A stretch of DNA of 64,000 nt. Origin: Laspinema olomoucense D3b (lineage in GTDB: Bacteria; Cyanobacteriota; Cyanobacteriia; Cyanobacteriales; Laspinemataceae). The notes beneath the pieces were generated by a model. It searched no databases, had not been told where the DNA came from, and saw only the letters and a list, made by a program, of their open reading frames with translations. The translations under genes were made by a program, and so were the position numbers. Location of the stretch: the NCBI RefSeq assembly GCF_025370785.1, contig NZ_JAMXFA010000001.1, positions 43,902 to 107,901 of the forward strand. The letters are read 5' to 3'. Positions 6,070 through 31,590 of the stretch are shown one piece after another. Every line of letters starts with the position of its first letter. Positions within the stretch are counted from its first letter, which is position 1.

Positions 6070-7650
6070 ATGAGTTCTAATCCGAATCAGCCCCAAAAGT
6101 CTCCGCTGAAAGTGGTGCCGCCGAAATCGGTGGTTCAACCACCTATCCCACCTACGATGCCCGCTTCGCCGACTCCTGAAGTGGTTTCCCCGGCAAAAGC
6201 ACCGGCTGCCTCTCCCTTTTACAAGAAGGGGTTAATGCTGCTATTTTTATTGGGGTGTGGGGTGGCGATCGCCCGAATTCCCATCGCGAATCATGTCACA
6301 GGGGCAGGAAAAATTACCTCCCGCAGCTATGAACGTCACCATGTTACGACTTCAGTAGCCGGTACGGTTAATCTGAAAGTTAAGAGTAATGGATTGGTGA
6401 CAGAAGGGGATATTGTTGCGGAGGTTTATAGTGCCGAAATAGAACAGCAAATTGCTCAGGCACAACAGAGTTTGCAGCAAGCCAATTCAGCACTTGATGA
6501 TGCCAAAAGTCGGCTAAAAATGGGCGAGATGCAACTATTGAAGGCTAAACAGGATGTGGCGATCGCCCGCAGTCGTGCTGAAAAAGAACAAGGGGAGTTT
6601 GAAGCAATTATCGCCGGAAACAACTCACCGCAAATTCGGCAGCTAGAAAAAGAAATTAACAGTATTGAAAGTGAAATAGCTGGGGCTAAAAATAATCAGC
6701 TTGGCATTGAAGAGCAAATTACTGGAATTCAGTATGAAATTGCGGGTTTAGAAGGAGATACGACAAATTATCAGAAAAATTTACAAATTTTACAAGCGGA
6801 AATCGAACAATATCAAGCAGTTCTTCTGGAAGGGGCATTAGCCCAGAATGAGTTTAATAAATCTCAGAAGGAAGAAAATATCCTGAAAGCTCAGATTAAT
6901 CAACAAATGAGCCAAATAGATGTGAAGCGCCAGCAAATCCGCCAATATGAAAGCGAAATCCGTCAACGAGAAAATTTGATTGAGCAAAAACAGGGATTAA
7001 TTGCTGCTAAATATGAACAGATTGCAGAACTTAAAAATAAAGCAGAAGAGTTGCGCGATGAGCGAGCCAATGAGCTGGAGCAACAGTTAGCATTACAGCG
7101 TTCTGTGGAAACCGAAGTGGAAGGGGCAGTAATACAGATCCAGAATGAATCGGAAAGGGTGGCTAAGGCAGAAGCGGAACTCGCCCGATTGCGCGATCGC
7201 CAACAGGATCTGATTTTAAAGTCTAAAATCACCGGAACAGTCGTGACGGCTGATTTAGACTTAGTAGATCAAGCCCCGGTACAAATGGGTCAAGAACTGA
7301 TGGAAATTGTTAATTTATCCGAGCTTACTGCAACGGTAGAAGTCTCCCAGGAAGATGGAAATTTGGTCAAACGCAATCAACCCGTAATTTTTAAGGTTCG
7401 TGACCCTTATAGTCCGAGTTACCGGGCCACGGTTCAAGAGATTTTACCGAAGATTGCTTCGGATCAATCCGGGACTAATCCGATGTTGACTTTGACTATT
7501 TTAATTGAAAATCACGACCAGAGTTTACGCCCTGGAAGTGAAGGATTTGCCCATATTGCAACGGGACAGATGCGAATTTATCAAAAAGCTCAACATGAAT
7601 TAAATAAGTTGTTTAATTTGGATAAATATTTTGTGGGATTTGATAAATAA
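6070..7650 (+). CDS. HlyD-family secretion adaptor (membrane fusion) protein
   Basis: A Pro-rich N-terminus precedes a single TM segment (LMLLFLLGCGVAIA). A very long coiled-coil region of about 300 aa (Q/E/A/K-rich) follows. The C-terminal beta domain reads (VIFKVRDP...TLTILIENHDQSLRPGSEGFAHI). Confidence 0.65.
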   Translation: MSSNPNQPQKSPLKVVPPKSVVQPPIPPTMPASPTPEVVSPAKAPAASPFYKKGLMLLFLLGCGVAIARIPIANHVTGAGKITSRSYERHHVTTSVAGTVNLKVKSNGLVTEGDIVAEVYSAEIEQQIAQAQQSLQQANSALDDAKSRLKMGEMQLLKAKQDVAIARSRAEKEQGEFEAIIAGNNSPQIRQLEKEINSIESEIAGAKNNQLGIEEQITGIQYEIAGLEGDTTNYQKNLQILQAEIEQYQAVLLEGALAQNEFNKSQKEENILKAQINQQMSQIDVKRQQIRQYESEIRQRENLIEQKQGLIAAKYEQIAELKNKAEELRDERANELEQQLALQRSVETEVEGAVIQIQNESERVAKAEAELARLRDRQQDLILKSKITGTVVTADLDLVDQAPVQMGQELMEIVNLSELTATVEVSQEDGNLVKRNQPVIFKVRDPYSPSYRATVQEILPKIASDQSGTNPMLTLTILIENHDQSLRPGSEGFAHIATGQMRIYQKAQHELNKLFNLDKYFVGFDK

Positions 7651-20670: not shown

Positions 20671-21175
20671 GAAGTTGTTGCCGCGATCGCTTTTCTGGGT
20701 CAGGGTAAAACTCAAGAAAGGCGATCGCTGCATAAGGTTATCTCACTTTTCCGGCAGTAGGTTCCCGAGTTGGCTCACTTACTGTAAAAATTTCTAATAG
20801 AACCTATCCAGTTTTATAGCATTGTTTCCGAGTTGTTATTTTAGCAAACCCCCACCCCAGAAATACGGTACAAGTGTTAGAGCGATCGTCAGCTATTTTA
20901 AAGGTGGACCGATGGAATTGCTCACTCTAACCCTTGTAAAGTTCCCCTCTCCTATCAGCGATCGTCGTGATTTTATGTGATTACCATAACGCAATCAATC
21001 GGCGTTAATGGTATGCTTAGACTGATCCATTGAAAATCATTCACCGGCCCTGACTTAAGTGCGGTTTATTCCATCAGGGTCCGTCCGTTTTCCCGAACCC
21101 TATTCCAACATCCTACAATTATCCCAGTGCCGGGGATTTTTATAAATCGGGTTTTCCACCCCATCCCAAAAATCG

Positions 21176-22252
21176 ATGAAAATGTTTGTTCCAGGTCGTC
21201 TTTGTTTATTTGGAGAACACAGTGATTGGTCCGGGGGATACCGAAGTATCAATCCTGCTCTCCACAAAGGATACACCCTCAGCGTCGGTACTAATCAAGG
21301 GATTTATGCTGAAGTCAAACCCCATCCGACCCACCTGATTCTTCACTCTTGTCTCACCGATGGTACTCGTAAAGAATTGTTACAAATTCCGATGGAACGA
21401 GAGGTATTACTGGCCGAAGCAAAAAAGGGTGGTTTTTTTAGTTATGCCGCCGGAGTCGCCTATCAAGCATTGACTCTTTATCACGTCCAAGGGATAGAAA
21501 TTGATAACTATAAAACTGATTTACCCATTCAGAAAGGGTTAGCCTCCAGTGCAGCTATCTCCGTTCTCGTCGCCCGTGCATTCAATCAGTTGTACGAGTT
21601 AAAATTAACCCTTCGTGGTGAAATGGAATTAGCTTATTCCGGTGAAATCACCACTCCATCTCGCTGTGGCCGCCTCGACCAAAGTTGTGCTTACGGCAAC
21701 CGCCCGGTGATGATGGTGTTTGATGGACAGCATATTAATATTATAGAACTCCACAGTCTAAAAAATTTATTTTTTGTAATTGTTGATTTAGCCGCTTCTA
21801 AAAACACCCATGAAATTCTCAGCATTCTCAATCAATGCTATCCCTTTGCCACCAATGAAATTAAGCAAAACGTTCATAAATATTTAGGAGAAATTAGCGC
21901 CCGAATTACCCAGGAAGCTGCCACTGCCCTAGAACAGGGGAACGCCGAATCCCTCGGGGCCTTAATGAAGCAAGCCCAAACCGAATTTGACCGCCATTTA
22001 ATTCGGGCCTGCCCCTCCCAATTAACTGCCCCCGTCCTGCACTCGCTTCTCAAACATCCGCCGCTGCAAAGCTTAATTTTGGGCGGAAAAGGCGTCGGTT
22101 CTCAAGGAGACGGTACAGCACAGTTCCTCGTGAAAAATCAGGAGAATCAACAGCGCGTGATTGAACTGATTAAACGAGATTTCCCGCAAATGCAGTGTTT
22201 GAAGCTGGTGATTTCCGCCTCTGCGGCTGAAGTCACACCAGAAGAAATCTGA
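21176..22252 (+). CDS. GHMP-family sugar kinase
   Basis: Motif 1 is PGRLCLFGEHSDW, the galactokinase-like PGRVNLIGEH pattern. Motif 2 is LPIQKGLASSAAISV, the GHMP ATP-binding loop. Confidence 0.7.
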   Translation: MKMFVPGRLCLFGEHSDWSGGYRSINPALHKGYTLSVGTNQGIYAEVKPHPTHLILHSCLTDGTRKELLQIPMEREVLLAEAKKGGFFSYAAGVAYQALTLYHVQGIEIDNYKTDLPIQKGLASSAAISVLVARAFNQLYELKLTLRGEMELAYSGEITTPSRCGRLDQSCAYGNRPVMMVFDGQHINIIELHSLKNLFFVIVDLAASKNTHEILSILNQCYPFATNEIKQNVHKYLGEISARITQEAATALEQGNAESLGALMKQAQTEFDRHLIRACPSQLTAPVLHSLLKHPPLQSLILGGKGVGSQGDGTAQFLVKNQENQQRVIELIKRDFPQMQCLKLVISASAAEVTPEEI

Positions 22253-22277
22253 TGGCCTTTTTTTTTACATTTTTAAT

Positions 22278-23171
22278 ATGAAAAAATCAACTTATCCAAT
22301 TCGCAAAGCAATTATTCCCGCCGCCGGATTTGGCACGCGCTTGTTTCCCGCCACGAAAGCTGTAAAGAAAGAATTATTACCGATTATTGACGGCCAGGGT
22401 CGAGTGAAACCCACGATTTTAGCTATTGTGGAAGAGGCCATCAGTGCCGGAATCGAAGAGGTGGCAATTATCGTCCAACCCAGTGACTGTCACCTGTTTG
22501 AAAGTTTCTTAAAAGCCCCGCTAAACCCTCATCATTATAACAAACTTTCCCCGGAAAATAAAGCTTATAGCGAGTATTTACAAGAATTAGGGGAAAAAAT
22601 TACCCTGTTAATTCAGGAGGTTCAGGAGGGGTATGGTCATGCGGTGTTTTGTGCGAAAGACTGGGTAAGTGATGAACCGTTCCTGCTGTTTTTAGGGGAT
22701 CATGTTTATTTGTCAGATACGGAACTCTCTTGTGCCAGCCAACTGGTGGAGGTTTATAACCGGGTGGGAAAAAGTACCGTTGCCCTCACGGTAACCCCTG
22801 GGGAGGAAATTTATCACTGTGGTTGCGTGACGGGGAATTGGCAAGATAACGACAAAATTTTATCCCTCACCCAAGTCTGCGAAAAGCCGGATTTAGACTA
22901 TGCCCGAAAACACTTAAAAGTGGAAGGATTAAGGGGCGATCGCTTCTTAACCGTCTTTGGAATTTACGCCCTGACTCCCACAATATTTGACTTTCTCGAA
23001 GCCAATATCCGCAATAATCTCCGAGAGAAAGGAGAATTTCAGCTCACCACTTCCCTAGAACAAGTCCGGCAAGCTGAAGGGATGTATGGCTATCAAATCA
23101 AAGGACGGTGTTTCGATACAGGAATGCCCGATGCCTATTATCAGACCTTCATCGAGTTTCGCCAGGGGTGA
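22278..23171 (+). CDS. UTP-sugar-1-phosphate uridylyltransferase (GalU/UGPase-like nucleotidyltransferase)
   Basis: The N-terminal block AIIPAAGFGTRLFPATKAVKKELLPI matches the UDP-glucose pyrophosphorylase signature. Confidence 0.7.
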   Translation: MKKSTYPIRKAIIPAAGFGTRLFPATKAVKKELLPIIDGQGRVKPTILAIVEEAISAGIEEVAIIVQPSDCHLFESFLKAPLNPHHYNKLSPENKAYSEYLQELGEKITLLIQEVQEGYGHAVFCAKDWVSDEPFLLFLGDHVYLSDTELSCASQLVEVYNRVGKSTVALTVTPGEEIYHCGCVTGNWQDNDKILSLTQVCEKPDLDYARKHLKVEGLRGDRFLTVFGIYALTPTIFDFLEANIRNNLREKGEFQLTTSLEQVRQAEGMYGYQIKGRCFDTGMPDAYYQTFIEFRQG

Positions 23172-23250
23172 AAATTGGGCTGGCTCCAACTCAGCCGGAT
23201 TGACATTTGATACCATAGATTAGAAACTTAGCAAAATTGACAAAACTCCG

Positions 23251-23928
23251 ATGAGAAAACTTGGCTTTGGATTGATATGGATTGGACTAATCATTTATGC
23301 TTTTGGATTTGCACCCCCGGATAACCCCACCGCCACCTTTAACTTAATTAAAAACCTAGTAACTGGAGAATGGGAGGGAATCAACCCCCTGATTATTGCC
23401 CTGTTTAATATCATGGGAGTATGGCCGTTAATCTATAGCGGAGTCCTATTTTTAGATGGAAAAGGTCAAAAAGTTCCGGCATGGCCGTTTGTCACCCTGT
23501 CCTTTGGAGTCGGTGCATTTGCCTTGTTACCCTATCTCGCTCTGCGCCAGCCTAATCCCAACTTTTCGGGGGAGAAAAATTGGTTTTTAAAAGCAGTAGA
23601 CTCGCGAATTTTCGGTGCGATCGCCGCCTTATCAGCCCTCATTTTAGTGGGATATGGCATTACCCAAGGAAATTGGACGGATTACTTCTACCAGTGGCAA
23701 ACCAGCCGATTTATTCACGTCATGACGTTAGACTTTTGCCTGCTTTGCCTCCTCTTTCCCACCATCCTCGGGGATGACATGGCACGACGCGGGTTAAACA
23801 GTCCCGGGATATTTTGGCTAGTCGCCTTAATTCCCCTATTAGGACCGGCATTTTATTTAGCCTTACGTCCCCCCGTCCAAGTTAGCGAGGAAGCAATACA
23901 GATGAAAACTGCTGTCACTCAGGAATAG
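23251..23928 (+). CDS. hypothetical integral membrane protein
   Basis: Five to six hydrophobic helices are evident. No family is recognisable. Confidence 0.4.
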   Translation: MRKLGFGLIWIGLIIYAFGFAPPDNPTATFNLIKNLVTGEWEGINPLIIALFNIMGVWPLIYSGVLFLDGKGQKVPAWPFVTLSFGVGAFALLPYLALRQPNPNFSGEKNWFLKAVDSRIFGAIAALSALILVGYGITQGNWTDYFYQWQTSRFIHVMTLDFCLLCLLFPTILGDDMARRGLNSPGIFWLVALIPLLGPAFYLALRPPVQVSEEAIQMKTAVTQE

Positions 23929-23949
23929 TACAGTAGCGGCAGAAGAAGG

Positions 23950-23985
23950 GCAAACCCATCATCTGCTGGGTTTGCTCTTTATTTT
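23950..23985 (+). terminator. rho-independent terminator after the membrane-protein gene
   Basis: The hairpin GCAAACCCA-tcatctgc-TGGGTTTGC is followed by TCTTTATTTTC. Confidence 0.5.
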
Positions 23986-24000
23986 CAGAAAACTCAGTTT

Positions 24001-24020
24001 TTGTCAAAATCCTTTGACAA
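24001..24020 (+). promoter_or_regulatory. perfect inverted repeat TTGTCAAA-atcc-TTTGACAA; putative operator, followed by TATAAT at 24029-24034
   Basis: The palindrome overlaps a TTGACA hexamer about 75 nt upstream of the XRE/ImmA regulator gene. HTH dimers typically bind such sites. Confidence 0.35.
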
Positions 24021-24044
24021 GTTTTCCCTATAATAGCGATAGAT

Positions 24045-24058
24045 TAAAAAATCAACTT
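24045..24058 (+). repeat. TAAAAAATCAACTT motif copy (shared with 26828-26854 and 22281-22293)
   Basis: The 13-mer AAAAAATCAACTT matches exactly at all three sites. Confidence 0.45.
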
Positions 24059-24095
24059 TTACAAAAGCTGACCCCCAACCCTGGAGAATCAAACC

Positions 24096-25196
24096 ATGAA
24101 GGAGACGATCGCAGGCAACCTAACCCGCTACCGCAAAGCTATAGACTTATCTCAAGAACAACTCGCCAACCTCGTCAGCGTCACTCGCCAAAGCATCAAT
24201 AACTACGAAAACGCCAAAACCTTACCCGATAGCAAAACCCTCTCAGCCCTTGCCCGCACCTTGGGCGTCACCCTGGATGACTTGCTGCGCCCAGAATCTA
24301 GACCAGTCACCCCCTTTCGATTTCGCGCCCATGCGGGCATTGACAAACAACCGCAATTTGCCACGCAAGTGCGACGGATGCTGGAGATTTATCAAGCCTT
24401 AGAAGCCGCCGCAGGCATCCCCGCTTATGCCCCAGAAACCCATTCCTGTCACCAATTACCCGGCAACGAAGCACTTATTCAGGCAACAGCCGCCCGGTTT
24501 CGCCGGACCTTGGGATTAGGGGAAACGCCCATTCTCAATTTATTTGCCGCAGTAGAGGAATTGGGGTTAAAAGTCCTCCGCCAACCCATTGCAACTAAAG
24601 GCTTTTTTGGGTTAAGTGCCTGTAGCTTTGCTCAAGGTGCTTTTGTTTTAATTAATACCCATAATATTTCTATTGAACAGCAAATTTTTACTCTAGCTCA
24701 GGAAATTGGTCATTTAATTTTCCATCGAGACGACTATCAAGATAACCTAATAAAACTGGAGAATCAAGGGGAAGAAGGAGCCCGGGAAGCCGTTGCCAAT
24801 TATTTTGCCCAACATTTACTGGTTCCCCAAACCGAATTTGAGCGGTTTTATCAAATTAGCCCGAACTTGATTCAACTCAAACAGCATTTTAGAGTCAGCT
24901 ATCAAGTGATTTTAAAGCGGTTATCGGATATGGGTCGCATCGACTATGGGCGTGAAATCGCAAAGATTCGCAAGATTTATAAACAGCGAAATGGCTTATC
25001 TTTGAGCAACTGCATCGAGTTACCTCCCACCTTAAAGGCAGAAGATTTTCCAGAAAACGAACGGTATCAACAACTCATCTGGCAAGCCTTAAATCGGGGG
25101 AATATCTCAGAACTGAAAGCAGCCGAACTGCTGAATATCACCCTGGAAGAACTGGGGGTTCGTCGTCGAGAGGCGGAGGTCTATGCTATCCCGTAA
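24096..25196 (+). CDS. XRE-family HTH regulator fused to ImmA/IrrE (COG2856) metallopeptidase domain
   Basis: The N-terminal HTH is LSQEQLANLVSVTRQSINNYENAKTLPDSKTLSALARTLGVTLDDLL. An HExxH motif sits in LAQEIGHLIFH. Confidence 0.7.
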   Translation: MKETIAGNLTRYRKAIDLSQEQLANLVSVTRQSINNYENAKTLPDSKTLSALARTLGVTLDDLLRPESRPVTPFRFRAHAGIDKQPQFATQVRRMLEIYQALEAAAGIPAYAPETHSCHQLPGNEALIQATAARFRRTLGLGETPILNLFAAVEELGLKVLRQPIATKGFFGLSACSFAQGAFVLINTHNISIEQQIFTLAQEIGHLIFHRDDYQDNLIKLENQGEEGAREAVANYFAQHLLVPQTEFERFYQISPNLIQLKQHFRVSYQVILKRLSDMGRIDYGREIAKIRKIYKQRNGLSLSNCIELPPTLKAEDFPENERYQQLIWQALNRGNISELKAAELLNITLEELGVRRREAEVYAIP

Positions 25197-25686
25197 CGGC
25201 ACGATTCTCGATGCCACTGCCTTGATTGACTTTCGCTATCTTGACGAGTGGGAGTGGCTGCAACGACACTATCAGCCCTTGTACATTGCCCAAGAAGTTT
25301 TAGACTCAGATCATCTCGAACAGAGTACGCGAGAGACTGCGAAAAAATACTTAATTCCGCTTCCGTTAGAGACTGAAGAAATGTTTGCTAGTTTTCTGGA
25401 GCTTGGCAATAAAGCGCCGCTGCTGAGTGAAGCCGATCGCTCAACTCTAGTTCTTGCTCGTCATCAATTATTATTATGTGCCAGTGATGATAATTTAGTG
25501 GTGAAAATCTGCAAAGAATATGGAATCGCTTACATCAGAACTCTGCGTCTCCTGACAGAGATGGTGCAGACGGGACATAAAAGTAAGATTGAAGTCAAGA
25601 GGATGGCCGAGTTGTTAATTCAAGAGAGAGGTAAACATATTCGGTCATCCATTTTAACCAATTGGTATAATGAGTTGGGGAAGTAG
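25183..25686 (+). CDS. PIN-like protein translationally coupled to the ImmA/IrrE regulator (possibly DUF4411-type)
   Basis: Its start overlaps the upstream stop by 14 nt. The acidic start ILDATALIDF...YIAQEVLDSD resembles PIN-like nuclease beginnings. The family assignment is tentative. Confidence 0.35.
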   Translation: MLSRNGTILDATALIDFRYLDEWEWLQRHYQPLYIAQEVLDSDHLEQSTRETAKKYLIPLPLETEEMFASFLELGNKAPLLSEADRSTLVLARHQLLLCASDDNLVVKICKEYGIAYIRTLRLLTEMVQTGHKSKIEVKRMAELLIQERGKHIRSSILTNWYNELGK

Positions 25687-25794
25687 GACGAATTAAGCAA
25701 TCTATTTTTCCAGGTTGTAAGATTAATTCCTTTGAGGTCAAATTTCAGGCGATCGCCCCTGGTTTTTGGCGAGAGGCGATCGCTTTGAGGGCTG

Positions 25795-26781
25795 TTAATC
25801 AAATAGGGTAGGTTGAATAAATACAGGCGATGGAGTTACAGGCTTTTTCTGCTTTTTCCCCCCCTCCTTAGTCGCCAAATCAACGCCGCGTAGGGTTTGT
25901 GGTCTCCAGAGTACAGTATCTTCAAGATCGTGGTCTTGCGATCGCTTTAAAGCGGTATCACGCCTATTCGTGGCATAGCAATAGGTACAGCCAAACATAC
26001 AGGTTTCATAAGCCCCGATATCCACAGCTTCTACACAGCCACAATCTTGCCGGGTAGGGGCGGCTTTGAGTCCCAAATCAGAATCAGATCTGAGCATTTT
26101 AATAATATCCATATCGATACAGTGAGCTTTCTCCACCCCCATACCGAGTAAAGCATCTTCGCAGCAGGAATACAACTTAATCCCTCGGGGTTCAGCAATA
26201 TCATGCAGTTGCTGAAGCAGTCTACTTTTTTCCTCTAAAGAAGGGCGCTGAAACTTGATGCCATGAGTTTGGGAAACTTTACCCAGGTTACGTTCAGTTT
26301 TGCCGTAAAAATCCACAAAGGAAAAATAACAGCGTCTGGTATAGCCTTCTAGTTGGCGAGTTAGCAAGTCAAACCGTTCCAAATGATAGGAAGCAGGGGT
26401 CACATCACTGAGTACAATGGGGTCATACCGCCACTGCACGAGATCGGGAGAAAGACGCCGTGACAGTTTTTGGAAGGTTTCGATAGATACTTCAATCGGA
26501 GGATTATGGCTTTCTATCGCTTTCGGATAACCGATAATTGTAAAGTGAAAATAAAAGTAGTAACCCTGCTGTTCCAGGAAATCCAGATGCGGCAGTAGTG
26601 GCTTCGGGTTGCGAGTCCAAAAGGCGATCGCCAAGCAGTCCTCTGGTAAAAGCGAGACCCGGTACACCTTGCTGCTGATGGGGTTAAGCCAGTGACAGAA
26701 CCCAGCCTGGATTCGGTTGAGAAACCACTTGGAATAGAACCCCGGAATATCCGTCCGACGACTGGCGCTAATAATCTTCAT
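25795..26781 (-). CDS. DUF1848-like protein with C-terminal Cys cluster
   Basis: The N-terminus MKIISASRRTDIPGFYSKWF is characteristic of DUF1848. The C-terminal cluster CGC...CMFGCTYCY suggests a metal or Fe-S site. Confidence 0.5.
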   Translation of the reverse strand: MKIISASRRTDIPGFYSKWFLNRIQAGFCHWLNPISSKVYRVSLLPEDCLAIAFWTRNPKPLLPHLDFLEQQGYYFYFHFTIIGYPKAIESHNPPIEVSIETFQKLSRRLSPDLVQWRYDPIVLSDVTPASYHLERFDLLTRQLEGYTRRCYFSFVDFYGKTERNLGKVSQTHGIKFQRPSLEEKSRLLQQLHDIAEPRGIKLYSCCEDALLGMGVEKAHCIDMDIIKMLRSDSDLGLKAAPTRQDCGCVEAVDIGAYETCMFGCTYCYATNRRDTALKRSQDHDLEDTVLWRPQTLRGVDLATKEGGKKQKKPVTPSPVFIQPTLFD

Positions 26782-26827
26782 AAAGCTGACGGAGTTGAGA
26801 CATACTGGTATTCTATCAAAAATTGAC

Positions 26828-26854
26828 TAAAAAATCAACTTAAAAATCAACTTT
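26828..26854 (+). repeat. tandem TAAAAAATCAACTT / AAAAATCAACTTT motif in the DUF1848-RT divergent intergenic region
   Basis: Two tandem copies lie at the left edge of the AT-rich, HIP1-free insert. The same 13-mer recurs at 24045 and 22281. Confidence 0.45.
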
Positions 26855-27026
26855 AATCCATAACTGCTGTTTTCTTCCATACTCCTTGTAGTATCCTAAG
26901 AATGTGGCAAATTGAGTGCATAAATTTTTCTCTATATGCCCCTGCTGTTCTGGCTGATGGACTTTCTCAACCAGCTATGCTGTTGATCGGGTTACATCAA
27001 CCGCGTCCTACAACTCGGGGAGCCTG

Positions 27027-28655
27027 ATGACAAACAATTCTCCATTGAACCTTTACTCTTTTCATCCTCACACGGCAGAAGTCTATACGGCTGTCCATAA
27101 ATGGCTGGCTACCCAAAAAGATGCCGAAAAATACAAGAGTGTTCGTTATCCTGGGGGAGATCAACGTAAACAACAAATGGAGGATTTGCTAAATGAACCT
27201 ACCCTTAAAATGGCGGCAGCCCAATACAATATTTTCTTTCCTACCCATTATTTTAAGGTGCTTTACACTTTAGAAAATATCGTAACCTTAGAAAAAATTT
27301 GTAATTGGTTTACGTGCAATCCTCACCTATATTTTATCGATATTGGATGTGGTGCCGGAGCAGCATCTGCTGCATTTTTGCAAACCACTCTAAGTCTTGT
27401 TGAAAATCAAGATATTTGCTTAATTCATCCTTTGTATATTTCCTGCGTGGGGATAGATGTTAATAAAGGTGCATTACCCCTTTATAACCAATTGATGCTT
27501 GAATTTCAAAAAAAATTAATCCCTTGGAACATTAATTTAGAATTTACTCTGGGACTAGGAGGAATTAGAGAAAATATTTTAACAATAAGAAACCATTTAA
27601 TTAAAAAGCGCGAAAAATGGAATCAGCCTTGCTTGTCAAATATTTTAATGTTCCAATCAAACGTAATTGATATGTTGGAACAGGAGCATAGTAAACGGCG
27701 ACAGGAAGATAAAAGTTTAATAGGATATAACGTCAACTCCAACGTTATTTTAAGCGACGATAAATGGTTTGCCGATGATTATGCAATGGTTTATAAGCAG
27801 TTATTTGAAGAAATTCCTGGTGACCTAATGCATACGATTACGATAGGAACTTCAAACAGTGACAATCATCGGGTAAAACAAATGGGCGCTGCAATTGATA
27901 GAATTTTTGGAAGCAGTCGTCATCAGTTTGAATCTGTGGGAAAAGGGACAAAATCATTAACTTTTAAAAACCCTCAAAACTCTTACTGGGAGAATAACCC
28001 AAAAGATACGCATATCTATTTTCATGTTGATGTTAGTAAAATTACTAGCGTTAAGTTAGAAGAAGACCAAGACTGGCATAATGTAACTAGCAGAGACAAT
28101 TTAGAAGTAGCCTGGGTACGTGCAAGAAAACACCTTTTGAAGGAGTCTCTTTGTGATGAAGTAGAAATCCGGCTATTTGAGAAAAATCTTGAAAGAAACC
28201 TAAATCGGCTGCAAGTGTTTTTAGTAGCTTATGTTAAAGAAGTCGATCATGAAGAGGACTATATTTCCTACCCTTTTCCAAAAAAAATCTCCCAAGCTCG
28301 TTGGAGAGGCTTATCTGGCTTAGAAGAAGAAATATTATCCGTGGCAATTATTCAAAAATTAGGCAATAAAGTGGCCGAATTACGAGGCAGCAGCTATGCG
28401 TATCGAATGACCCGGGAACCCGGAAATAAAACTACAGAATATTTATATTCCTCTTGGTTTGGGGCCTATAAAAATTTTGTTAAAGATGCTTGTTTGGCCG
28501 CAGAAAAATTTCAAGCTTGTTTAATTATTCGCGCTGATATTAAATCTTTTTATACCCATATAATTCAGGATAAATTAATAAGTTTAGTTTCTCAAGAATT
28601 AATTGAAAGTAAACGCATCCGCTGGTTGCTGAGATTATTACTTTCAAAAAATTGA
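27027..28655 (+). CDS. reverse transcriptase, N-terminal part (Rossmann/SAM-MTase-like motif plus RT motifs 0-3); ends at a frameshift
   Basis: The N-terminal domain carries a glycine-rich LYFIDIGCGAGAAS block and a CVGIDVNKGAL block, matching MTase motifs I and II. The RT fingers/palm follow in three blocks. Motif 1 is YPFPKKISQARWRGLS, motif 2 is EEEILSVAIIQKLG, and motif A is LIIRADIKSFYTHI. The ORF ends TGA inside the tca-aaa-aat-tga stretch. Confidence 0.7.
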   Translation: MTNNSPLNLYSFHPHTAEVYTAVHKWLATQKDAEKYKSVRYPGGDQRKQQMEDLLNEPTLKMAAAQYNIFFPTHYFKVLYTLENIVTLEKICNWFTCNPHLYFIDIGCGAGAASAAFLQTTLSLVENQDICLIHPLYISCVGIDVNKGALPLYNQLMLEFQKKLIPWNINLEFTLGLGGIRENILTIRNHLIKKREKWNQPCLSNILMFQSNVIDMLEQEHSKRRQEDKSLIGYNVNSNVILSDDKWFADDYAMVYKQLFEEIPGDLMHTITIGTSNSDNHRVKQMGAAIDRIFGSSRHQFESVGKGTKSLTFKNPQNSYWENNPKDTHIYFHVDVSKITSVKLEEDQDWHNVTSRDNLEVAWVRARKHLLKESLCDEVEIRLFEKNLERNLNRLQVFLVAYVKEVDHEEDYISYPFPKKISQARWRGLSGLEEEILSVAIIQKLGNKVAELRGSSYAYRMTREPGNKTTEYLYSSWFGAYKNFVKDACLAAEKFQACLIIRADIKSFYTHIIQDKLISLVSQELIESKRIRWLLRLLLSKN

Positions 28656-30055
28656 ACGAACATGATTTGGGTTCGGGGGTTACTCAAGGACACATTGGTT
28701 CAGGTTTTTATGCCAATGTTTATCTAACTTCCATAGATATGAGATTCGGCTCTAATAATGAGTGGGGTCTTAAATTCTTCCGGTATGTTGATGATATGAT
28801 TATCGTTATTCCAGATCCAGAAGATGAAAAAGATGTTTTAGAACAGCTTAAGAAAGAACTACAAGAAATTGGACTGGAACTAAATGAGGATAAAACAGAA
28901 ATTTTTCACTCAGTATCCGATTTTTTAGAAATATGTAGTGAAGATGAAGATTTAACGAATTTGGGCAATGAATTTCAAGGTATTATTAATCTTTTGTGGA
29001 TAATGAACTCGGATTATCGAACTGCATTTAAATCAGCCTACCGAAAAGAAGATGATAAACTGTGGTGGCACTTAGTAGAACAATATCAATATTACCTTCA
29101 ATCACTAAAAATTTACATTCACACACCGGATCTTAGCCGTCGAATACATTCTTATATTTTTAACAGTAAAAAACGCCTGAAAGATTTAAAGGAAAAACAA
29201 GAGTTAAATTTGCCCAGCCTACCTGATGAGCATCAAGATATAATAAATTGGAAAGAAAATTTTGAAAATGCCAATCTAAATTGGAAAAACTCCAAAGACA
29301 GCTTAAGAGCCAAACTTGTAAGTATGTTTTGCGAAAGCTGGGAAAACTTACAAGCACTTGCTCCAAATGATGTAAAGACAGCTAGAAACCTCCAAACACG
29401 GATTCGTTTTGCCTTGAACAAGCTCTCTTTATTGGGTATAACAGAGATTTCTAAATATTTGGCAGATATTTTGTGTCAAAGCCCCTGGACGGTCCGCGAG
29501 CCTTTACAAGCTGTAGAAAGTTTGGCACGCCAAGGATGTTTATCTGAAGTCATTGGGATACTTGCCTACTATCAACATACCTCATATCCCATGAGTGAAT
29601 ATATGAGATCTGTTACTTTAAGAGCCCTCAGATTTTTACCTGAAATGGAGGTATTTATCTGGGAAAAAATTGTAGAATTTGCAACTATTGGGACTCTGGT
29701 AGAACGACTCATGGCAACTGAAACCTGGATAGCTTTGGGGTATATATCGGAGCAGTTCGTAGAGCCACATCATATTGATGCTGTATTAGTTGCTTTACAT
29801 GGCGAACCCAAGCCCACACCCAGACTCAAGAAAAATTATCTGCTTATTTTGGGACTGCATGATAGCCAACTTATTAAGAACGAGCCTATAAACACTCAAG
29901 ATTATTTGTTAGATGAAGCCCGTAATCTTGTATTAGAAGAAAGTGTTGGTGATTTATTTAGCTACCAGGAGCCTCAAATAATTCGAGAAAAATACTATAG
30001 TGGAAAGGGTCAATCCGAGATAGGCGATGAAGTCGATTATCCCGTCCTGAGATAA
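28652..30055 (+). CDS. reverse transcriptase, C-terminal part (RT motifs B-D/thumb plus alpha-helical repeat domain)
   Basis: Motif B is GVTQGHIGSGFYANVYLTSID and motif C is FRYVDDMIIV, the YxDD box. Motif D is LELNEDKTEIF. A roughly 330-aa helical, HEAT-like tail follows. The part starts at TTG in the -1 frame, overlapping the upstream stop at the A6 run. Confidence 0.7.
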   Translation: MNEHDLGSGVTQGHIGSGFYANVYLTSIDMRFGSNNEWGLKFFRYVDDMIIVIPDPEDEKDVLEQLKKELQEIGLELNEDKTEIFHSVSDFLEICSEDEDLTNLGNEFQGIINLLWIMNSDYRTAFKSAYRKEDDKLWWHLVEQYQYYLQSLKIYIHTPDLSRRIHSYIFNSKKRLKDLKEKQELNLPSLPDEHQDIINWKENFENANLNWKNSKDSLRAKLVSMFCESWENLQALAPNDVKTARNLQTRIRFALNKLSLLGITEISKYLADILCQSPWTVREPLQAVESLARQGCLSEVIGILAYYQHTSYPMSEYMRSVTLRALRFLPEMEVFIWEKIVEFATIGTLVERLMATETWIALGYISEQFVEPHHIDAVLVALHGEPKPTPRLKKNYLLILGLHDSQLIKNEPINTQDYLLDEARNLVLEESVGDLFSYQEPQIIREKYYSGKGQSEIGDEVDYPVLR

Positions 30056-30164
30056 ACAAGGAAACTGATTATGACGCTTCAATTTATTAACTTTTAAGAA
30101 AGGTTGGCTTCAGCTTGCTAACTGGAAGTTGTGCCGATCGCCCCCTAAACGTCCTCAAACCTCC

Positions 30165-30195
30165 GAAAAAAACACAAAAGGCGCGATCGCCGCGC
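30165..30195 (-). terminator. rho-independent terminator of the minus-strand gene 30215-30670 (GGCGCG-atcgc-CGCGCC plus U-tract on minus strand)
   Basis: On the plus strand an A-rich run aaaaaaacacaaaa precedes the GC hairpin. The site lies between convergent genes. Confidence 0.5.
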
Positions 30196-30214
30196 CTCCT
30201 GTTACTTATCCAAA

Positions 30215-30670
30215 TTACGACTCCCAGTCGGGACAGTCGCCATCGGCTTCCCAGCCATAGGGATGCATCCCACAAACCAGTAAATTGCCCCCGTAAACCT
30301 GTCCGTGATAGTTTTTACAACCGATACAGGCTGAATATTTTTCCGCTGTGGGTTCCACAGATGACACAAACCCATCCATGTCCGTCGGGAATTCATCTAG
30401 TCCTAAATACAGGTCAAAAAAGGGATCAACTAACTCTTCAAAATATTGGTCGAGTTCGGTAAAAATTGTGGTTTGCAATTCTTCCGTGAATTCTTCAGAC
30501 AGTTCCATGATATCTGAAGAAAACCTTCCCAAAATATCAACGAATTCCTCGACCTCTTCCGTCACTTCTTGAACAAAGCGATCCACTTCTTGTCCCGCTG
30601 TTTCTAACATCTTGAAAAATTCTTTCGGCCAATCTTCCATAACCCTTTGCCTAATGATTTCCGGAAGCAA
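30215..30670 (-). CDS. hypothetical acidic protein with C-terminal Cys/His cluster
   Basis: The C-terminus is CIGCKNYHG...LVCGMHPYGW...DCPDW. No family is recognisable. Confidence 0.35.
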   Translation of the reverse strand: MLPEIIRQRVMEDWPKEFFKMLETAGQEVDRFVQEVTEEVEEFVDILGRFSSDIMELSEEFTEELQTTIFTELDQYFEELVDPFFDLYLGLDEFPTDMDGFVSSVEPTAEKYSACIGCKNYHGQVYGGNLLVCGMHPYGWEADGDCPDWES

Positions 30671-30673
30671 TCT

Positions 30674-31045
30674 TTATTCGTTCTGGAGTCGCCGTAGTTC
30701 ATCCTGTAACGATTGTACCTGATCGCGCAGGTTATTCACCTCCGGAGGTTTCTCCGGGGCGGGTTCTTCATCGTCTTCTAAGATTTCAATGCGACGGGGC
30801 TCTCGTGGCGTTGTGGGTTCAGATGGGGGCTGCTTGATCTGCTGCTGGCCCTGTTTCATCATGTCTTCCACGAAGCGACGCGCTTCTTCGGTGCTCATTT
30901 CGCCCCGTTCGACCATTTCATCGGCAAGTTTTTGGGCTTGGTCCCGCACTTCGGCTAATTTTCCGGTTGCTTTTTCGCCCGCGTAAGACGCGATTCCCAC
31001 TCCCAGATAGAAGGCCTTTTGTACCATATCACCGAAACCAGGCAT
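30674..31045 (-). CDS. hypothetical phasin-like small protein
   Basis: MVQKAFYLGVGIASYAGEKA...EEARRFVEDMM resembles the phasin / granule-associated helical protein family. The assignment is tentative. Confidence 0.35.
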   Translation of the reverse strand: MPGFGDMVQKAFYLGVGIASYAGEKATGKLAEVRDQAQKLADEMVERGEMSTEEARRFVEDMMKQGQQQIKQPPSEPTTPREPRRIEILEDDEEPAPEKPPEVNNLRDQVQSLQDELRRLQNE

Positions 31046-31311
31046 AGGCAGTATTGCTCCTTAGTCGCTGAGGTTACTGCTTCTAGGATAAGGCCAATAG
31101 AGGCGGAGTGACCACCAAAAAGCGGCAGTAAAAAAAAGTGACCCGGATACCACGCCTGTCACAAGCATCCCGTATTGCTGCTACCTTCCGGTCCTGACAA
31201 GATTTGGGCGTTATGACCGCATGGGTCCAGGTCATTTACAACTATATCATTGTTGTCCGACTCTTGTCTAGGGGGTTGCGGAATATTTTTTAAAGTTGTG
31301 ATTTCAGCCCG

Positions 31312-31590
31312 TTATTCAACGACGATACACCACTCATAGAGGTCGTAGTTGACGCAGCCATGCTTGACGAGAGGGTCCTCAGCGACGATCTGCTGGGCTT
31401 CTTCCATTGACTCCGCCTCAAATAGCAGCATTCCGCCTCCGCGTCGTTGCCAATAGCCAGTTTTGGCGTTATGTCCTTTGGCAATTAAATCTTCAACGTA
31501 GGCTTTATGGGCAGGAACGTGGCGATCGAAGGTAGGTTTATCGACGATTCCTTTTTCTATCTTGACAAACCAGGGCATTTGAGGGTGCAC
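31312..31590 (-). CDS. YciI-like family protein
   Basis: This 92-aa protein shows a YciI-like pattern in WFVKIEKG...AHKAYVEDLIAKGH...GGGMLLFEAESMEEAQQIVAEDPL. Confidence 0.55.
   Translation of the reverse strand: MHPQMPWFVKIEKGIVDKPTFDRHVPAHKAYVEDLIAKGHNAKTGYWQRRGGGMLLFEAESMEEAQQIVAEDPLVKHGCVNYDLYEWCIVVE

Follow-up and report, generated by a model that had tools for sequence, protein, structure and literature searches.

UG25 and UG35 are groups of methyltransferase-reverse transcriptase (RT) fusions in which the RT is paired with a DUF1848 protein (UG25) or with UvrD (UG35); the prediction that they act in defence was called inconclusive, and no noncoding RNA (ncRNA) was reported for either group (Mestre et al. 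2022, PMC9226505). Here we describe a short promoter element at a DUF1848-linked methyltransferase-RT locus of Laspinema olomoucense D3b, located on a 64-kb stretch of contig NZ_JAMXFA010000001.1, which we refer to as the window and to which all coordinates apply. The 13-mer AAAAAATCAACTT is present in three exact copies in the window, all on the plus strand, at 22281-22293 in a galU-like gene (site 1), at 24046-24058 upstream of a gene encoding an XRE-type helix-turn-helix (HTH) domain fused to an ImmA peptidase (XRE-ImmA; site 2) and at 26829-26841 between the divergent DUF1848 and RT genes (site 3). The repeat is real, two of its three sites are conserved, and the sites differ in standing. 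On balance we consider it probable, with somewhat better than even confidence, that a short dyad-symmetric promoter element occurs twice, at sites 2 and 3, and would serve as core of the divergent promoter and as operator and place both modules under one factor, the presence of the 13-mer at site 1 being coincidental. The motif is an ordinary regulatory feature, and is neither an attachment site, a dispersed repeat nor the main operator of the XRE protein.

A repeated 13-mer in the window

The first-pass annotation of the window had described the 13-mer at three places and had judged this number too high for chance. Both statements are borne out by exact matching, since dinucleotide shuffles predict 0.01 matches and none of 100 shuffles reached three or more. 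The positions given at that time for sites 2 and 3 (24045 and 26828-26854) were off by one, the true starts being 24046 and 26829, and the tandem pair described for site 3 consists of an exact 13-mer adjoined by a copy of which only 12 nucleotides (nt), AAAAATCAACTT, are exact; read as a 13-mer, this second copy is TAAAAATCAACTT and carries one mismatch. The copies are arranged as follows:

22281-22293, plus strand: exact 13-mer of site 1, spanning galU-like codons 2-5 (ATG AAA AAA TCA ACT T), left dyad arm lacking
24046-24058, plus strand: exact 13-mer of site 2, 11 nt after a TATAAT box
26829-26841, plus strand: exact 13-mer of site 3, first tandem unit
26842-26853, plus strand: 12-nt tandem copy directly after site 3, duplicated in one lineage and lacking a left dyad arm

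When up to two mismatches are allowed, the rest of the 64 kb yields matches at chance level only, and the 9-mer core of the motif is almost confined to the known sites. A dispersed repeat, such as a miniature inverted-repeat transposable element, a repetitive extragenic palindrome or a HIP-like sequence, was rejected because the window holds four copies only and their flanks are unrelated; in the related loci compared, no copy was found outside the orthologous positions. The 60 nt on each side of sites 2 and 3 align locally no better than shuffled sequences, and the shared 13-17 nt therefore constitute a discrete element rather than the remnant of a duplicated segment, a source for the repeat that the flank alignments between the sites exclude. 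A scan of viral sequences with TWGAYTAAAAAATCAAC returned 116 scattered matches, about as many as a rough estimate predicts by chance for an AT-rich 17-mer given the size of the collection, and therefore uninformative, and a full-text literature search for the motif strings retrieved unrelated primer and sequence matches only.

The conserved unit is a 16-bp dyad

The 13-mer is part of a longer unit that becomes apparent when DUF1848-linked methyltransferase-RT loci are compared (L numbers denote the loci used). These loci, whose RTs are 40-66% identical to the RT of the window or of L001, make up five lineages together with the group of the window, the other four being L134, L082/L083, L135/L261 and L094/L097. 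In the multi-lineage alignment the most conserved blocks are TTGAC(T/A) and A(T/C)CAAC, and the bases between them are always A or T, although they vary (AAAA, TTAT, TTAA, TAAA). The resulting 6+4+6 pattern, TTGAYT-W4-MATCAA, has arms that are mutually reverse complementary, AATCAA being the reverse complement of TTGATT. The 13-mer alone shows no dyad symmetry, and comprises the AT spacer, the right arm and the CTT that follows the dyad; the A-run with which it had originally been described corresponds to the variable spacer. Individual dyads read:

26823-26838, site 3 of the window: TTGACT-AAAA-AATCAA, 16 bp; nowhere else in the window is the dyad pattern matched exactly
L254 and L001: TTGATT-AAAA-AATCAA, a perfect dyad, TTGATTAAAAAATCAA
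L135: TTGACT-TTAT-CATCAA
L261: TTGACT-TTAA-AATCAA
L097: TTGACT-TAAA-CATCAA

Within approximately 2 Mb of non-viral cyanobacterial loci that were scanned, TTGAYWAAAAAATCAAC is restricted to DUF1848-RT intergenic regions. Weak dyad matches at 7210, 41782 and 62497 of the window lie inside open reading frames (ORFs) and were taken as chance. The left arm, TTGACW, is kept in all DUF1848-RT lineages though it is placed in the spacer of the promoter described below, where RNA polymerase constrains the sequence little, and it is as well conserved as the right arm; this argues for a second function, of which the simplest is that of an operator. We propose with moderate confidence that the dyad at site 3 is also a putative operator that overlaps the -35 box and the RT leader.

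Site 3 lies in a predicted divergent promoter

Two boxes were identified on the minus strand at site 3 by a promoter scan based on consensus sequences:

26833-26838, minus strand: TTGATT, the predicted -35 box for DUF1848, which within the motif reads AATCAA on the plus strand
26810-26815, minus strand: TAGAAT, the predicted TG-extended -10 box, ending 28 nt ahead of the DUF1848 start codon (ATG)

The two hexamers, which span 26838 to 26810, are separated by a 17-nt spacer. This geometry is of the sigma-70 type and is kept across the five lineages while the surroundings diverge, as seen from the corresponding boxes in the related loci:

L134: -35 TTGATT, 17-nt spacer, -10 TAAAAT
L082: -35 TTGATT, 18-nt spacer, -10 TATAAT
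L083: -35 TTGATT, 17-nt spacer, -10 TATACT
L135: -35 TTGATG, 17-nt spacer, -10 TATAGT
L261: -35 TTGATT, 17-nt spacer, -10 TATAGT
L094: -35 TTAATG, 18-nt spacer, -10 TATAAT
L097: -35 TTGATG, 18-nt spacer, -10 TATAAT

The -10 box precedes the DUF1848 ATG by 26-28 nt, or by 35-38 nt in one lineage. In L082/L083, L135/L261 and L094/L097 the intergenic region is only approximately 60-80 nt long and ATCAAC is positioned 1-2 nt before the RT ATG. TAnnnT boxes on the plus and minus strands overlap, and the DUF1848/RT intergenic region is predicted to be a compact, overlapping divergent promoter. We are highly confident that site 3 contains the predicted -35 box of the DUF1848 promoter, such that the right arm of the dyad, read on the minus strand, would provide the -35 hexamer (TTGATT), while the same bases, given the transcription start that we infer, would be the start, or the whole, of the short RT mRNA leader. 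The dyad is most likely an operator as well, and a single dimeric protein bound to it could shut both divergent genes.

The second tandem copy is found only in the Laspinema lineage (the window, L001, L081, L254 and L255) and is absent in L134, L082, L083, L135, L261, L094 and L097; indeed, L134, whose RT is the closest to that of the window, has a single copy. The long RT leader of the window also contains a small upstream ORF, MPLLFWLMDFLNQLCC, at 26936-26986, whose homologue in L134, VPLLFWLMHHLN..., shows a synonymous difference. This ORF, compared in two diverged lineages, may encode a leader peptide.

Site 2 is a near-copy of the dyad in the XRE-ImmA leader

As originally annotated, site 2 is situated between a TATAAT box and the XRE-ImmA gene, where the alignment to the dyad extends the 13-mer to the left:

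24029-24034, plus strand: TATAAT, -10 box of the XRE-ImmA promoter, conserved in homologous promoters
24040-24055: dyad-like copy TAGATT-AAAA-AATCAA with one mismatch to the dyad, at approximately +1 to +16 of the predicted rmrA-like transcript

The dyad-like copy begins 5 nt after the TATAAT and site 2 is conserved in L003, L254, L255 and L256. In L007 it reads TAGATT-TTAA-AATCAA, so that only the spacer differs and 11 of the 13 bases of the 13-mer match. Between site 2 and site 3 of L254 the identity reaches 17 nt, GATTAAAAAATCAACTT.

MAFFT aligns AAAATCAACTTTTACAA of the window with the second, downstream operator of homologous XRE-ImmA promoters, which is located at the same 18-nt distance from TATAAT. 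CAAC-TTT(G/T)ACA is ancestral to the XRE-ImmA promoters, and AAAAAAT is new in Laspinema, where it replaces the left arm. Conversely, AAAAAATCAAC is ancestral in the DUF1848-RT promoters (the window group, L134 and L082/L083), and the TT that follows is new in the Laspinema lineage. The derived bases of each site thus match the ancestral bases of the other, a pattern that favours short conversion, or selection that drew both sites to one sequence, over plain chance. We regard site 2 as a near-copy of the dyad in the leader of the neighbouring module, with an uncertain function; this Laspinema copy, just downstream of the -10 box of the XRE-ImmA/PIN module, would bring both modules under the same factor. 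The proposal of an island-wide promoter element therefore stands in part, in that two defence modules that adjoin each other carry sites 2 and 3 in their promoter regions, but it does not extend to site 1.

Site 1 is a predicted coding coincidence

Site 1 does overlap the start of the galU-like (UGPase-like) ORF, as had been stated, in that it covers codons 2-5. In sister species, which read ATGAAAAAyTCAAAT... and similar, 10-11 of the 13 bases match, and the conspecific strains read ATGAACAAATTAACTG (10 of 13), even though the region is otherwise 98.8% identical. The N-terminus of the galU-like protein is variable and lysine-rich, and the exact 13-mer is two or three substitutions away from the relatives. 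Because the 13-mer is missing in the conspecific L. olomoucense strains, we treat site 1 as a coincidence, which on this comparison is strain-specific, confined to the coding sequence and not conserved. The differences from the conspecific strains cluster at 22255-22300, comprising the start of the galU-like gene and 25 nt upstream, and five of the initial 21 nt of the ORF are substituted; this stretch looks like a small recombined or hypervariable patch.

Weighing the shared promoter element

Several observations weigh against a promoter element shared by sites 2 and 3. Every promoter element was predicted from consensus and conservation, and an AT-rich motif built of -35-like hexamers raises the odds of convergence. 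Positions, conservation, junctions and promoter geometry were established directly from the sequences, whereas transcription starts, the operator function and any binding protein common to the sites are inferred. The minus strand of site 2 offers no usable promoter, since it has either a 14-nt spacer to TATTAT or TATAGG as a -10 box, and no divergent gene; the function of site 3 is thus not transferable to site 2. The -35 geometry seen at site 3 is likewise missing at sites 1 and 2, site 1 being inside an ORF. In L001 and L006 the XRE-ImmA gene is preceded by a different upstream segment without the element, which is thus dispensable for that module. In addition, no candidate binding protein is consistently encoded beside the DUF1848-RT modules, and the motif scan, and with it any view of a wider regulon, is limited to 64 kb of this genome and approximately 180 kb of close relatives.

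A more specific version of the shared element is that the dyad is the operator of a repressor and was recruited into the RosmerTA-like leader in Laspinema, so that one factor would switch on both modules, for example during phage infection or upon DNA damage. Selection for a shared operator is suggested by the derived bases of each site being equal to the ancestral bases of the other, and we advance this version tentatively, as a possibility well short of even probability.

Alternatively, function is confined to site 3, which would be no more than an ordinary -35 box and its flanks, and the identity with sites 1 and 2 would reflect chance convergence or short-patch conversion between AT-rich promoter sequences that had ATCAAC or CAAC in common beforehand. 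Both ancestral sequences already had (A/T)-rich DNA followed by TCAAC, the exact 13-mer of site 1 arose from a 10-11/13 ancestor without conservation, the flanks of the sites are unrelated, and L001 and L006 lack site 2, all of which would fit such an origin. We nevertheless find it rather unlikely, because the matches between the sites include seven bases that are derived at site 2 and two that are derived at site 3, which is unlikely to occur in the absence of selection or conversion, and ordinary RecA-dependent homologous conversion requires more than the 4-6 nt of microhomology available. Moreover, L007 alters the spacer bases of the dyad alone, and TTGACW is retained in all DUF1848-RT lineages despite its position within the promoter spacer.

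The XRE-ImmA promoter has its own palindrome

The 13-mer had also been suggested to be an operator for the XRE-type regulator, that is, a binding site of the RmrA-like XRE-ImmA protein, which would autoregulate at site 2 and control the DUF1848/RT genes at site 3 in the manner of CapH/CapP. The following feature upstream of the TATAAT box bears on this suggestion:

24001-24020: perfect 8+4+8 palindrome TTGTCAAA-ATCC-TTTGACAA (O1), unique in the window

In L003 and L007 the arms of O1 are kept and the 4-nt spacer is variable. XRE-ImmA homologues that are 58-66% identical and reside on plasmids of Dolichospermum, Nostoc and Pseudanabaena have the same type of palindrome in the same place, TGT(C/A)AA-N-TT(G/T)ACA being common to the homologous promoters, and the promoters of Nostocales contain a second palindrome, T(G/A)TCAA-CAAC-TTTGACA, downstream of the -10 box. 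The palindrome at 24001-24020 is likely, by its sequence and position, to be the autoregulatory operator of XRE-ImmA.

Some findings do speak for control by XRE-ImmA through the 13-mer. The identity of 13-17 nt between sites 2 and 3 is limited to the Laspinema lineage, in which both modules adjoin; site 2 overlaps the place of the promoter-proximal operator O2 of the homologues, again 18 nt from TATAAT; and PADLOC reports weak capH and capP matches for the XRE-ImmA protein. Furthermore, in the UvrD-type UG35 operon of L137 the promoter of a small XRE gene contains ATCAAGT twice, with a 12-nt period equal to that of the tandem in the window and a similar core. This small XRE HTH gene precedes the operon in Nostoc sp. 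KVJ20 (L137 200-255), which is a single example. Against these stands the absence of the 13-mer from the homologous XRE-ImmA promoters of L257, pNLP4, L259 and L258 and from the upstream variant of L001 and L006, whereas the palindrome that the homologues share is perfect and unique in the window at O1. The dyad differs from this palindrome in the opposite order of its half-sites and in its width (16 bp versus 20 bp), and its core is kept at DUF1848-RT loci that have no XRE-ImmA neighbour (L082, L083, L134, L135 and L261). L001 retains the tandem motif despite a disrupted XRE-ImmA gene and another upstream region. The suggestion is therefore not supported: the differing half-site order and width, together with the dyad core at loci without XRE-ImmA, make this protein a poor candidate for binding the dyad, and we deem it improbable that the 13-mer is its operator. 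At 11835-13058 of L001 the XRE-ImmA gene is split into ORFs of 88 and 275 amino acids by an insertion of approximately 120 nt.

The RT leader as RNA

The element might instead act as RNA. In the 5' end or leader of the transcripts of RT and XRE-ImmA it could, being A-rich, enhance translation of the RT gene, which lacks a Shine-Dalgarno sequence, or the RT could recognise or copy it. Every copy is in the sense orientation relative to the gene that follows it, the compact lineages have no Shine-Dalgarno sequence and place ATCAAC 1-2 nt ahead of the RT ATG, and several UG/Abi RTs require a neighbouring ncRNA (PMC9226505). The 215-nt RT leader (26821-27035), however, folds no better than shuffled sequences (z = -0.33), the motif leader has no match in Rfam, and the possible UUGA/UCAA stem would be only 4 bp long. 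A structured RNA would not fit between the genes of the compact lineages, which are approximately 60 nt apart, the distance from motif to start codon varies widely (1-2 nt, 38 nt and approximately 175 nt), and for UG25 and UG35 no ncRNA is on record (PMC9226505). We accordingly give little credence to a role as RNA. An A-rich leader lacking a Shine-Dalgarno sequence may help translation of the RT, which would leave site 2, with a GGAG of its own, unexplained. A structured ncRNA of the kind associated with the RTs of DRT2, DRT3, DRT9 and retrons was not found at the RT leader. The Rfam scan of 21000-31500 identified, apart from one sub-threshold match, only a bacterial small signal recognition particle (SRP) RNA on the minus strand at 31137-31233 (RF00169, 62.6 bits), just to the right of the hotspot described below.

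Insertion junctions

The locus is a variable hotspot, as is evident from a comparison with seven sister-species loci. L002 and L004 are empty, such that the membrane gene runs straight to a phasin-like gene; L006 and L007 contain XRE-ImmA and PIN alone; and L001 and the window additionally contain DUF1848 and the RT. Homology to the empty sites stops at approximately 23945, 100 nt before site 2, and the DUF1848-RT module occupies approximately 25784-30134 (4.35 kb), with its ends at 25783/25784 and 30134/30135. In every lineage site 3 lies inside this module, between its two divergent genes. The drop in GC content and the break in identity to L001 begin at approximately 27104-27200, within the RT ORF, and the location of site 3 at a compositional edge of the insert, as initially perceived, is not maintained. 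Although 13-mer direct repeats bracket groups of genes (22281/24046 and 24046/26829) in what is a variable region, the idea that island junctions are marked by the motif, acting as a site of attachment or recombination or as a mobile cassette end, is refuted by the mapped junctions and merits next to no credence, as these lie elsewhere relative to both the empty and the partly filled sites, the motif is at least 100 nt inside the modules, the right border of the DUF1848-RT module carries no copy and no integrase or recombinase is encoded among the ORFs between 21176 and 34444.

The 7-nt sequence CGATCGC, the core of HIP1, flanks the DUF1848-RT module at 25777-25783 and 30135-30141, and both copies sit exactly where homology to the module-free L007 ends and resumes, which suggests that the module was inserted or deleted through HIP1-type sequences. 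Identity to L001 is 95-97% over DUF1848, the intergenic region and the opening approximately 78 nt of the RT ORF (26782-27104 of the window versus 14644-14966 of L001), whereas the rest of the RT gene has approximately 70% nucleotide identity and 45-57% identity at the protein level. From this pattern the body of the RT appears to have been exchanged by recombination with retention of the partner gene and the promoter.

Gene content of the locus

Three L. olomoucense assemblies align to the window at 98-99% nucleotide identity, and the XRE-ImmA protein is 99% identical to L. olomoucense proteins. The genes of the locus are:

21176-22252, plus strand: GHMP kinase
22278-23171, plus strand: galU-like nucleotidyltransferase
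23251-23928, plus strand: membrane protein
24096-25196, plus strand: XRE HTH fused to ImmA/M78 peptidase, RmrA-like (Pfam HTH_3 and Peptidase_M78; PADLOC RmrA, E=2.5e-33)
25183-25686, plus strand: PIN-like DUF3368 of 167 amino acids, overlapping the XRE-ImmA gene (DUF3368 is annotated on the identical gene in L254)
25795-26781, minus strand: DUF1848, PADLOC RTasDUF1848 (Pfam E=1.9e-91; PADLOC E=2.5e-55)
27027-30055, plus strand: methyltransferase-RT-alphaRep, PADLOC RT_UG35, in two ORFs (27027-28655 and 28652-30055)

The RT_UG35 profile is covered over residues 3-503 (E=2.7e-170) and 505-932 (E=1.2e-154), and the gene carries the S-adenosylmethionine (SAM)-methyltransferase motif DIGCGAG and the RT motif YVDD. 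By profile and motifs it is classified as a methyltransferase-RT of the UG35 type (UG/Abi class 1), with DUF1848 as its partner instead of the UvrD-like helicase expected for UG35. The RT itself was rejected as its own regulator, as no HTH domain was detected in it at relaxed Pfam thresholds. A -1 frameshift falls in a poly-A run at 28640-28655, which is A6 in the window and L255 and A7 in L254, where the RT gene is intact as a single ORF of 1009 amino acids; the A6 split could be a real inactivation, a slippage resembling phase variation or a homopolymer sequencing error.

The XRE-ImmA and PIN-like DUF3368 pair (24096-25686) is assigned from its gene content as a RosmerTA-like module. The gene for the DUF3368 PIN-like toxin adjoins the 3' end of DUF1848 both in the window (25183-25686) and in L134 (179-903); the antitoxin partners differ, being XRE-ImmA in the window and UPF0175 in L134, as does the orientation. 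A plasmid search with DUF1848 gave no helpful RT-linked cyanobacterial relative, and a viral scan for relatives of XRE-ImmA gave two distant matches only.

Comparison with known systems

The consensus sequences of IHF, the Pho box (11-nt period), HLR1, NtcA and LexA do not fit the motif in sequence or spacing. The resemblance to the IHF consensus WATCAANNNNTTR is limited to AATCAA after an A-tract, since the TTR falls outside the spacing that IHF requires (ATCAA-C-TT); to our knowledge, cyanobacteria encode HU and not a classical IHF.

The RosmerTA-like module shares with described RosmerTA systems a gene for an XRE HTH-ImmA/M78 peptidase fusion and, overlapping its end, a small toxin-like gene, here the PIN-like DUF3368, and with both RosmerTA and CapH/CapP a palindromic operator that overlaps the promoter of the gene itself. 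CapH/CapP-type HTH-protease regulators control neighbouring defence genes, and the likeness of the present protein to them is drawn from weak PADLOC matches. The 13-mer is not that palindrome, and control of the RT module by XRE-ImmA is only possible.

The RT module resembles the UG25 and UG35 systems in having a single protein of approximately 1000 amino acids, in which an N-terminal DIGCGAG is followed by a YVDD-bearing RT and then by a long C-terminal region, together with a DUF1848 partner. It differs in that an RT that scores as UG35 is paired with DUF1848, whereas the related UG35 loci L136 and L137 have UvrD, and in that no promoter element is described for these groups (PMC9226505). 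UG25 and UG35 systems are uncharacterised and their role in defence is unproven, and a conserved promoter or operator element would provide a handle on their expression and control. Through the element, DUF1848 and the RT gene are recognisable as a single transcriptional unit whose divergent promoters overlap; if the element does couple the toxin-antitoxin-like module, this would be an example of separate defence systems co-regulated in one hotspot, and otherwise it is an ordinary promoter feature.

The overall arrangement is similar to that of divergent sigma-70 promoters with a shared operator; the back-to-back genes studied here, 60-245 nt apart, have predicted -10 regions overlapping on opposite strands and a -35-like hexamer 17-18 nt away, with the dyad overlapping the -35 box and the leader of the other gene. 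It is distinct from such promoters in that the element is specific to cyanobacterial DUF1848/methyltransferase-RT pairs.

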